A stretch of 64,000 bases of DNA, from positions 19,840,001 through 19,904,000 of the forward strand of contig CM022665.1 of NCBI GenBank assembly GCA_012295275.1, given 5' to 3'. This stretch comes from Chrysomallon squamiferum (taxonomy: Eukaryota; Animalia; Mollusca). Below the pieces are notes generated by a model that saw only the letters and a list, made by a program, of their open reading frames with translations, was not told the origin of the DNA and did no database searches. Both the position numbers and the translations under genes were made by a program. Shown here one piece after another: positions 16,401 through 19,400 of this stretch (positions are counted from its first letter, which is position 1; the number at the start of each line of letters is the position of its first letter).

Positions 16401-19400
16401 TGGCAGGTCCCCGTCAACAGTACTCACTTGAGAGCTGTCTGGAATCACAAAACCACGCCGGTCCAGCAAACTGAAATAAATTTTATATTAAATATTAAAT
16501 ATTTAAATCTATTAATTAATATTTAAATTTAATAATTATATTTATAATCAAATAATTAATGTCGATATTATGTACATCACATCAGTCATCTTCTGTAATA
16601 TCTGTGACAGTGGAATGTGTACACAGTTGTGTAATGAGTACGTGGTTGTGTGATATGTGTACAATGTGTAATCTGAGTACATGGATGTGTAATGTGTGTA
16701 CACTGTTGTATTTATGTTGTGTAATGAAAAAGTTTTATTTGTGATGTATGTTCACTGTGTTGTATCACAAGATTGCATGTTACTATGGCATGTTAAAAGG
16801 TTGGGTTTCACTAGATGTTTTGTATAGGGAAATCACCTGGGAGGAGCAGGACCACAAAGCACTGTGAGGCAGTTTTTGAAAATTGACCCTCGACTGTACG
16901 GATTAAAACTTTCTTGTCCTCGTTTTGATGTGAATGATCCTTTTATCTAAAAAGATCCATAATTAAAACAATTTAAATTATAAACATTTACAGACTCAAC
17001 CACTTGCAATAACTCTTTCTATTTAACTTATAAAATAACATCATGGTAAAATCAGTCTAGTGAAACAGTAGTATAAATGTTTGGGTTTTTAAAATAGTTT
17101 TTAACAGTTCCAATAGCTACTACTGTAATGTTCATTTGTTTTGTTTTAAATTTTAAAAAGATTTCTAAAGTTAGTTACTATAGTAACTTACATCTTCATT
17201 GGTGGTTTGTTCTGATGAAACCAAATAGGAATGGAAGCCAGCAAGACCAATAAGAGACCACACGGAAAAGAAGCATATAACTAACTCTAAAACAGTGACA
17301 CACGTTAAGGAACAAAACACATCTGTTAAAATAATTTTTAAATAAATAAATAAATAAAATAAAAAATAAATAATATATACAGATACTGTCACAAACACAT
17401 TTGTTAAAAAGTCAATAAATAAAAAATAAGCAGTATATGAAATACTATCACAAACAATTTGTATTAAAATAATAACCAAAAAAAAAAATTAAAATTAAAA
17501 AAATAAATTAAAAATAAATTTAAAAAATTAAATAAATAATAGAAAATAAGCAGTATATGAAAATACTTTCACAAACACATTTATTAAAATAATTTTTAAA
17601 TTTTTAAAAAAAATGAGTATTTTAAAATACTGAAACAAAGCATGCAGGCAGGCAACCTCATACAGTATAAAACAACACTGTAATGCAATAAGTTATTATA
17701 TGGGGGTTTTAATATTGATATAGTTACAGGGTGAAGGTGAATTAATTGCTGCTGAATTATTGTTTTTTTAATATTAAAAATTAAATTTCAGTCCATGGTT
17801 TACTGGCAGTTTGCTTATTAAGTGTTCACAGCCTATTTTTTCTGAACATACATATATTCTGTTTATAGTATTTTTAATGTTCTTTTGTTGTTGTTGTGGA
17901 GAATGCACTTTGACATTCTGACAGTCACTTAATCAATACACAGGATATGTGTCAGCAGTTATTTTACACATCAATTATATCTTAAAAATAAACAATAATA
18001 TCCGATGATTAAAAACATTTCTGCTATTTTGAATTTTATTAACACAGATAAAATTAACTGCCACTGATGAGCAGTCTCAAACTGATTATTTCAAGTTATT
18101 ATGTTAACAAATGATGCAGTGTTATATTAGACTCAGTGTTGTATATTTAGAATAGATTTTGAAAAATTGGCCTGATAATCTTTACTGAACTGAGACTAAA
18201 ATATAAAAATAAATAAATAAATGAAATAAAATGTATATTAATAAAGATACACACAAAAAAGATAAAGTATTATGAGGAGGGAGTAGTATTAAATGAGATA
18301 ACAGTACATCAAGGGTTTATCATGCAGACTGTTACAACAAACAACACTGAGTGAGTCAATGTAAGTGAAAATAATACAAAGCTAAGTGAGTAGACTGTGA
18401 GCAGCTCACTTACATCTTCATTAGTGGTCTGCTCGGAGGTGGCCAGGTAAGTGTGAAACGGCCAGACCAATGATTGACCACACAGAGAAGAAACAGATTA
18501 TTGTTTCGACAATAGTGACCACGGGTCAAGGAATATTCTGCATTATACCTGTCCATTTTACTCAGCATTTTTCTGTTAAATGTTTTACTCTCTCTCGCAT
18601 TCACACACACAAACACACACACACACACACACATACTCTATCTATCCTATTAATAACATTCATTTACACAATCACCCTTGAATGCCATCTAAATAAAGTG
18701 ACACACACAGATCTACATTCACACCTGCAAAAGAAAAAACCCAAAATGAAACAAATACACTATATGCAAATTAATTCTGTGATATAAAAAAAAATTAAAA
18801 GGTAGACAGTTTAAAAAAGGATATCTGGCTGGTGAATCTTTCATGGCATTGAGGAAATTGTCTTGTTGGGCACCTGAAATACAGAACAATAATTAAATGT
18901 TGATAACATCATCACATTTATGTACAGAAAATAAATATACTGAACAGAGAACTTGAATAATTTAAAGAAGAACCTAATAGTAGGTCAGTGATTTACTGTA
19001 AGGAAGATGAAGCATTTAAATCACATTAGTTCAAGTATGACATCATGACATCACAGTTTATTATTATAAAATAGTATTAACATAAATTACAAAAATGTTC
19101 ACACTGTGTATGTAGAGAAAATCAATATCACTGTAGACACAGTGTAACATCTCTTGTATTCTATTTTCATTCACTCTGATAATTGATTTTTACTGACAGA
19201 TAACATTTTGATATCACATACATATGCATTTTAAGATTCTAACCATGACCGTGTTACAATGCAGCACTCACAGTGAAAATACTAATACACTACTCACACC
19301 GCTCACAGTAAAAGTATTCTTAGCGATGTGAACAGTTTGTTACAAGTATCTATTAGTCATGCAAATAGTCTGTTACAGCTATCAATAAACCATGTAAACA

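Follow-up and report, generated by a model that had tools for sequence, protein, structure and literature searches.

Tandem copies of exon 6 behind an AT-AC minor intron in a molluscan ZDHHC9/14/18 palmitoyltransferase gene: a conserved and likely mutually exclusive pair, one copy frameshifted in the Chrysomallon squamiferum sequence as read

The stretch of DNA analyzed (the window; 64,000 nt of Chrysomallon squamiferum contig CM022665.1, positions 19,840,001 to 19,904,000) carries a palmitoyltransferase gene on the minus strand, running from ~25.8 kb to below 14.8 kb. A small DUF1358 gene (27883-29213, plus strand) is divergent from it, and the two possibly share a promoter near 26 kb. Also present are an RCC1-repeat gene (33390-46215, minus strand; Pfam RCC1) with long Glu/Lys-rich exons, which we take to be RPGR-like; exons without a Pfam match (51269-52173, minus strand), which we assume to resemble Akirin; and a SNF2-family helicase gene (58654-63113, plus strand; weak SNF2 match), presumably SHPRH-like. 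In a 423-codon open frame (4701-5972, plus strand), tandem repeats of ~20 residues come after the terminal part of a phospholipase A2-like domain, itself a weak match under the Pfam cut-off.

Exons of the palmitoyltransferase gene (all minus strand) were placed by a splice model except where indicated. The coding part of exon 1, counted from the second ATG, occupies 25594..25742; an in-frame ATG 75 nt upstream adds 25 residues that are present in the Gigantopelta aegis model. Exon 2 (23118..23278; TM2 region), exon 3 (21587..21745; cysteine-rich domain, also by protein comparison) and exon 4 (20982..21119; DHHC motif and TM3, also by Pfam) are followed by exon 5 (18825..18873; 49 nt, phase 2 end, also by motif scan), exon 6a (18414..18514; 101 nt with 2 nt missing at ~18459, by alignment to 6b), exon 6b (17192..17294; 103 nt, open), exon 7 (16837..16946; also by motif scan) and exon 8 (16332..16470; also by the G. 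aegis protein). Exon 9 (14822..14943) is approximate, its acceptor may lie ~36 nt further upstream, and more exons follow beyond it. The 3' end of the gene (14943-14300) shows further alternative splicing, and the six G. aegis isoforms differ only at their 3' end or in partial skipping of exon 8.

The 5-6b-7 model was compared with RefSeq G. aegis ZDHHC18-B-like and matched it at 325/336 residues without gaps. The G. aegis protein in turn matched the human ZDHHC9 structure 8hf3 (E 1.5e-135), and the DHHC cysteine-rich domain was scored on this 97%-identical protein (PF01529, E 1e-38), with DHHC itself in exon 4. The nearest DHHC enzymes were ZDHHC9/14/18, with TTxE after TM4, and the limpet orthologue showed four hydropathy peaks, the fourth beginning at the first exon 6 residue. 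On these comparisons the gene was assigned to the invertebrate ZDHHC9/14/18 (app; Erf2/App) palmitoyltransferases. Palmitoyltransferase activity with a GCP16/Golga7 partner is predicted from family knowledge (available portion of bioRxiv 2022.12.12.520165).

Splice sites around exon 6 were located by motif scan. The sequence ATATCCTTTT stands directly after exon 5 (18815..18824) and is the sole strict U12 donor in the 64 kb window (at 18824). U12 branch points TCCTTGAC (18532) and TCCTTAAC (17311) end 10 and 9 nt before the starts of 6a and 6b, and the final intron bases before both copies are AC (branch point and acceptor together at 18515..18532 and 17295..17311). A U12 AT-AC intron was defined by a ATATCCTT donor and a CCTTRAC branch point near an AC end, and this combination was found here. 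GTAAGT follows both copies and AG precedes exon 7 (16946). Intron 6b-7 (16947..17191; 245 nt, also by splice model) is an ordinary GT-AG intron, and the 1119 nt between the copies (17295..18413) form a hybrid with a U2 GT donor, a U12 branch point and an AC end. Every splice signal that the preliminary description of this DNA had assigned to exons 5, 6a, 6b and 7 was recovered at its position by motif scan and splice model. Two of the four strict branch motifs in the window (both strands) are those preceding 6a and 6b, and when the 1877-nt region was resampled 3000 times by dinucleotides, a branch point with AC arose 0.015 times on average and never twice. Given this rarity of the motifs in the window and in the resamples, the splice anatomy is not attributable to chance, and that of the putative U12/U2 exon pair is real.

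Two further candidate sites were noted nearby. A strong U2-type acceptor (18725, minus strand; pyrimidine tract, CAG) lies within the minor intron, 100 nt past the U12 donor; splicing of exon 4 to it would bypass exon 5 and reach a stop after ~17 codons, so that it may serve as an escape or decay route. The second, an AG preceded by a T/A-rich tract (~17323, minus strand), lies 28 nt upstream of 6b and is a possible cryptic acceptor for the 6a donor; its use would break the frame.

The copies were aligned globally (101 nt in 6a, 103 nt in 6b), and the 2-nt gap of 6a at ~18459 fell in the conserved Gly of the G-F-H motif. Among four modeled products, 5-6b-7 alone was open; 5-6a-7 shifts frame and meets a stop at codon 250 within 6a (TAA 18423-18421), double inclusion likewise stops at codon 250, and skipping of exon 6 stops at codon 220. 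The preliminary description had credited the copies with 25 of 33 identical residues and with TTNE in both. With the broken codon masked the count of 25/33 was reproduced, which as the window reads it is not, and the TTNE letters are present in both copies but out of frame in 6a as the window reads. The dN/dS comparison that it had proposed between the copies gave pN 0.12 and pS 0.95 with the same masking, a ratio not near 1.

Other genomes were searched with a degenerate pattern for the exon end, yielding 101 matches in 98 metagenome loci. A branch point with AC (53) or AG (1) was present at the same position in 54 matches, many of their loci redundant; the others had no intron there or were spliced (37), were chance or too divergent (8), or were cut (2). 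Two copies were found in three of the 98 loci (L017, L033 and L020), of which L033 is 95% identical to L017 and was counted once. L017 and L020 each carry an intact 103-nt 6a followed by 6b, 1.0 and 2.1 kb apart, with a branch point, AC and GT donor at each copy (the 6a acceptor of L033 is cut off); these two loci reach neither exon 5 nor exon 7. The hybrid intron between the copies (GT donor, U12 branch, AC end) recurs in the window, L017, L033 and L020. These loci are likely from clams, because their first copies translate to the 6a-type isoform segment of Dreissena, Mercenaria and Mya. A prokaryote genome scan returned 0 matches.

The preliminary description had looked to relatives for a conserved 6a, and this was borne out by the intact 6a of L017 and L020, each of which shares 31/33 residues with that of the window; the window 6b shares 29/34 and 28/34 residues with their second copies. 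Between the window and L017, 6a gave dN 0.054 and dS 1.61, and dS was saturated against L020. Synonymous sites are thus near saturation with few amino-acid changes, a pattern that supports purifying selection on the duplicated exon 6. A tree of 36 segments (34 columns) had 0/33 branches starred; the a and b types were sorted by similarity, and the tree does not establish that the pair had a single origin.

A single exon 6 was found, between exon 5 with its U12 donor and exon 7, in 10/22 loci examined for structure (L003, L004, L010, L015, L026, L040, L042, L044, L060 and L077). In one of these the minor intron has a GT-AG form (L003:934-1081) and near-identical orthologues (L015, L060) have AT-AC, which we read as a subtype switch in L003. 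Insect-like loci (L006, L016, L019, L059 and similar) have lost the minor intron, with exons 5 and 6 fused. Single-copy loci of at least 900 bases were scanned with half-exon profiles, and no second or broken exon copy was found; the same scan detected both halves of the broken window 6a. Human and mouse ZDHHC9, 14 and 18 appear as minor-intron genes with AT donors in rows of the PMC6717393 supplement, and the donor motif given for human ZDHHC14/18 is the same as ATATCCTTTT (PMC6717393 supplement 1, in part). From the single-exon-6 loci we infer that this is the same intron as that of the window. The ten single-exon loci and the human and mouse listing together point to a single exon 6 behind an AT-AC intron as the ancestral state, and the pair arose when this exon was duplicated together with its flanks.

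Protein records were assembled from sequence searches and cluster member lists (at least 463 proteins, mostly gene models). RNA support behind such gene models is the usual case. At least 22 of 38 named mollusc species, two species pairs with identical records being counted separately, had two to three versions of a 34-residue segment between identical flanks; among the records listed, 22/30 species with at least two records showed several versions and 8/30 one only. The multi-version species comprise gastropods, bivalves, cephalopods and a chiton. Three versions occur in at least four species (Mizuhopecten, Argopecten, Mytilus edulis and M. trossulus). Three-version records in scallops and mussels include P0154/P0159/P0163, P0155/P0161/P0165 and P0029/P0038/P0039; the third Argopecten version is strongly divergent, and the mussel-like cluster of P0037 holds further versions. 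The 6a type is the more conserved (mean 30.1/34 over 11 distinct segments, vs 27.8 over 15 for the 6b type), and limpet and chiton share the very same segment of this type. In most lists the 6b type is the commoner (Octopus sinensis 11/12, chiton 7/8 and Pomacea 9/10 of the records listed); among the records listed, limpets had the 6a type only and Aplysia and G. aegis the 6b type only.

Outside molluscs, and again among the records listed, Lineus (7 records) and Owenia (2) had two much more divergent versions, Tubulanus had one divergent version, and ecdysozoan and chordate groups had one version in 10/10 cases. The nemertean and oweniid versions (P0189, P0024, P0077, P0283) match the window copies at 12-16/34 residues, and both Owenia versions deviate from consensus. 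An arthropod exon duplication, suspected from two segment types, was rejected, as each species had one type. Exactly 34 residues were present in 319/325 listed proteins spanning both flanks, and 0/325 contained both copies, a count that weighs little since out-of-frame products would go unannotated. Two records from short Logan contigs (P0021, P0425) join exon 5, a 6a-type segment and exon 7, which implies spliced RNA. Several automated gene models miss the AT-AC junction (P0015, P0058, P0447, P0453), and the isoforms already stand unremarked in public annotations. These comparisons indicate that the switch is old and conserved in molluscs.

The state of 6a in C. squamiferum was weighed against these relatives. 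With the break masked, 6a is identical at 31-32/33 residues to the 6a-type segments of chiton, abalone, oyster, scallop, mussel and clam, and it stands one amino-acid change from the segment common to chiton and limpet (32/33). The switch could nevertheless be dead in this lineage, with 6a a recent pseudo-exon and the gene effectively constitutive for 6b, and we consider this possible though the lesser part of the expectation. It would account for the 2-nt deletion and stop inside 6a, for a Thr where 23/23 6a-type segments have an invariant Ala, and for the 0/6 G. aegis RefSeq isoforms that use 6a (the window 6b segment is 34/34 identical to all six). The other exons are free of indels, and because the remaining 336 codons align to G. 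aegis without one, errors are uncommon in this gene. Against a dead switch, the near-consensus coding and the intact state of all three splice signals mean that any loss of 6a was very recent, and the rarer form is commonly absent from RefSeq. Moreover, the orthologous codons in L017 and L020 are GGT TTC CAY, and the window differs from these in that two short homopolymers are each one base shorter; its letters are equally compatible with a single 2-nt deletion. Loss of single bases in short homopolymers is a typical long-read error. When short proteins were searched with the exon 5-7 region of G. aegis, no 6a fragment from a close relative was returned (70 matches, the best at 70% over the whole region).

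For the gap itself, we put an assembly error at roughly even odds, a fixed recent loss clearly lower and an unfixed allele lower again, and we lean toward assembly error or unfixed allele over a fixed recent loss or the poison exon considered below. Given the frameshifted 6a, the two proteins of the switch may perhaps not both be made in this species.

We consider it highly probable that the locus holds an old tandem duplication of exon 6, each copy with a U12 acceptor and a U2 donor, that the copies are likely mutually exclusive, and that the resulting enzymes would differ in TM4. U2 and U12 sites are generally incompatible (available portions of PMC3584512 and PMC1874599). The exon 5 U12 donor would have no compatible partner but the AC acceptors of the two copies, and the GT donors of the copies none but the AG of exon 7, barring both 6a>6b and 5>7; the hybrid intron is one that, as its sites support, neither spliceosome should remove. 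Exclusivity of the copies through U2/U12 incompatibility is thus likely on the arrangement of the sites. Since minor introns are spliced more slowly (PMC3584512, in part), the major spliceosome would probably commit first, choosing the donor. Joining of 6a to exon 7 would then remove 6b and leave only the 6a acceptor, and joining of 6b to exon 7 would require the minor spliceosome to pass over the nearer 6a acceptor.

Branch points were scored for match to TTCCTTAAC, giving 8 for 6a vs 9 for 6b in the window, 7 vs 8 in L017 and 7 vs 9 in L020. The 6a acceptor has the weaker branch consensus in 3/3 genomes, for which reason the default form is probably 6b, with 6a used under regulation.

The preliminary description had held that incompatibility leaves exactly one copy in use. 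Isoform records with one version each agree with it, but incompatibility alone is insufficient, as 5>6a together with 6b>7 is possible. That combination would be a dead end, stranding the hybrid intron with an in-frame stop within ~35 codons, and since it leaves this intron retained, regulation or coordination and decay would be needed as well. With an exon of 103 nt, retention of the hybrid intron, skipping and double inclusion would all break the frame, and nonsense-mediated decay would remove the products. When the minor spliceosome is impaired, U2 and U12 sites are known to be cross-used (MAPK12, CENATAC; PMC8329584, in part).

Exclusivity might instead come mainly from frame and nonsense-mediated decay, or from splicing regulators or RNA pairing, with the U12/U2 mismatch a by-product of the duplication of an exon that chanced to lie behind a minor intron; we regard this as improbable. 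The 103-nt exon, by which double inclusion and skipping both shift the frame, is what such an account expects. In the available portion of PMC5740500, 377/629 human clusters have lengths that are not a multiple of three and just five are of the U2/U12 kind, and in JNK2 a pyrimidine tract and Nova determine which exon is used (PMC1874599, in part). However, in 3/3 genomes both copies retain their AC ends and branch points despite saturated synonymous sites, and the introns of the window, L017 and L020 had no conserved segment outside exons and splice signals at E below 0.02, hence no sign of a shared docking or selector element at this distance. Frame and decay complement the incompatibility reading more than they replace it. 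That the frameshifted 6a is a deliberate poison exon, lowering enzyme levels with minor-spliceosome activity, is very improbable: intact signals surround a stop-carrying exon with several downstream junctions, and such decay-coupled splicing is known for minor introns (PMC3584512, PMC8329584, both in part), but the coding of 6a is still near the mollusc consensus, as for an exon that coded for protein until very recently.

The closest known arrangement is that of JNK (MAPK8/9/10) exons 6a and 6b. In the available portion of PMC1874599 these are a tandemly duplicated exon flanked by a major intron on one side and a minor intron on the other, with an unspliceable hybrid intron between the copies and one copy per mRNA, and an origin by duplication of the exon with its flanks is proposed. 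JNK differs in having the U2 intron upstream and the U12 intron downstream, with a hybrid of U12 donor and U2 acceptor (PMC1874599, PMC8329584, in part). In the snail gene the minor intron is upstream and of the AT-AC subtype, two or three U12 acceptors are available to a single U12 donor, gene and phylum are different, and clusters of three occur in scallops and mussels. The likeness to JNK drawn in the preliminary description therefore extends to the incompatibility mechanism and the hybrid intron and not to the layout, which is the mirror image. TMEM87A and TMEM87B exons 11/11a are likewise mutually exclusive, of equal length and interlocked with a minor intron, and their choice is tissue-specific (PMC6717393, PMC8329584, in part), but their polarity is that of JNK; the hybrid of U12 donor and U2 acceptor common to JNK and TMEM87 is the opposite of that in the window. 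Hatje et al. (2017) give five human clusters of the same mechanism class (0.79% of 629; PMC5740500, in part). One of the five might share the mirror polarity, in which case the snail polarity would not be unique. In the ten supplements of PMC5740500 searched, ZDHHC9/14/18 were absent and a ZDHHC2 candidate was the only entry of this family.

Human ZDHHC9/14/18, Drosophila app and yeast Erf2 are orthologous enzymes, the human genes also with the AT-donor minor intron (PMC6717393 supplement, in part); chordate and ecdysozoan orthologues differ in their one exon 6 version (10/10 groups, records listed). Fly app isoforms are described as differing in the C-terminal tail, and suspected alternative exons of app were set aside, the available portion of PMC13104975 naming only C-terminal isoforms. 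A suspected AT-AC link of CaV2 exons 37a/37b found no confirmation in the open-access literature. The preliminary description knew of no such arrangement in a ZDHHC gene, and none was found for ZDHHC9/14/18 exon 6 in the open-access literature (subscription journals outside scope), including the available portions of PMC11347168, PMC12149502 and PMC13104975. The exon 6 switch is real and conserved, its mechanism already described, its polarity and gene different.

Few genes are known in which the minor spliceosome mediates regulated alternative splicing, and the exon pairs described so far are opposite in polarity. Oyster, abalone and octopus have ample public RNA data, in which regulated choice of a minor-spliceosome acceptor is directly testable, and mollusc clusters also test whether incompatibility alone polices an expanding exon cluster. 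A wider reading, which as a whole we advance tentatively and with some doubt, is that the switch is about as old as molluscs and perhaps shared with nemerteans and annelids; that the minor spliceosome would choose, under tissue regulation, among two or three branch points kilobases apart; that the lock would permit growth of the cluster without RNA docking; that the copy chosen would shape the acyl pocket of a Ras/Fat palmitoyltransferase at its TM4 wall and hence the lipid or substrate preference of the enzyme; and that the snail may be losing one arm.

Exon 6 encodes TM4 and the TTxE motif, the hydropathy peak starting at its first residue, and corresponds by alignment to human ZDHHC9 226-259. 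Across 45 sorted segments, positions C7, F8, F9, S10, S13, G16, L17, G19-H21, Y23, L24 and T30-D34 are invariant, and most differences between the a and b types fall at 1, 2, 14, 15, 22, 25 and 26. The preliminary description had the switch exchanging TM4 and TTxE; the exchange holds for TM4 and its cytosolic end and not for TTxE, since TTNE is identical in both copies and T-T-N-E-D invariant in both types. The isoforms would differ at ~8 conservative positions, and the most likely effect is a putative tuning of acyl-chain fit or substrate contact, not of catalysis. DHHC20 Ser217 maps to exon position 6 or to 7 according to where a one-residue gap is placed, which makes any effect on the cavity tentative; an AlphaFold prediction for the limpet orthologue from its sequence alone reached a mean pLDDT of 41 and was set aside. 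In the available portion of bioRxiv 2022.12.12.520165, TM4 forms part of the lining of the acyl pocket, the diverse residues are those close to the acyl tail, and the named GCP16 contacts exclude TM4; a TM4 ridge of DHHC20 is proposed as a substrate contact (PMC9105814, in part). Natural TM4 variants of a DHHC enzyme are useful for how these enzymes choose lipid and substrate. The luminal differences at positions 1-2 could reach the putative region of the acyl tail, and the remaining ones could contact lipid or substrate, all the changes being conservative.
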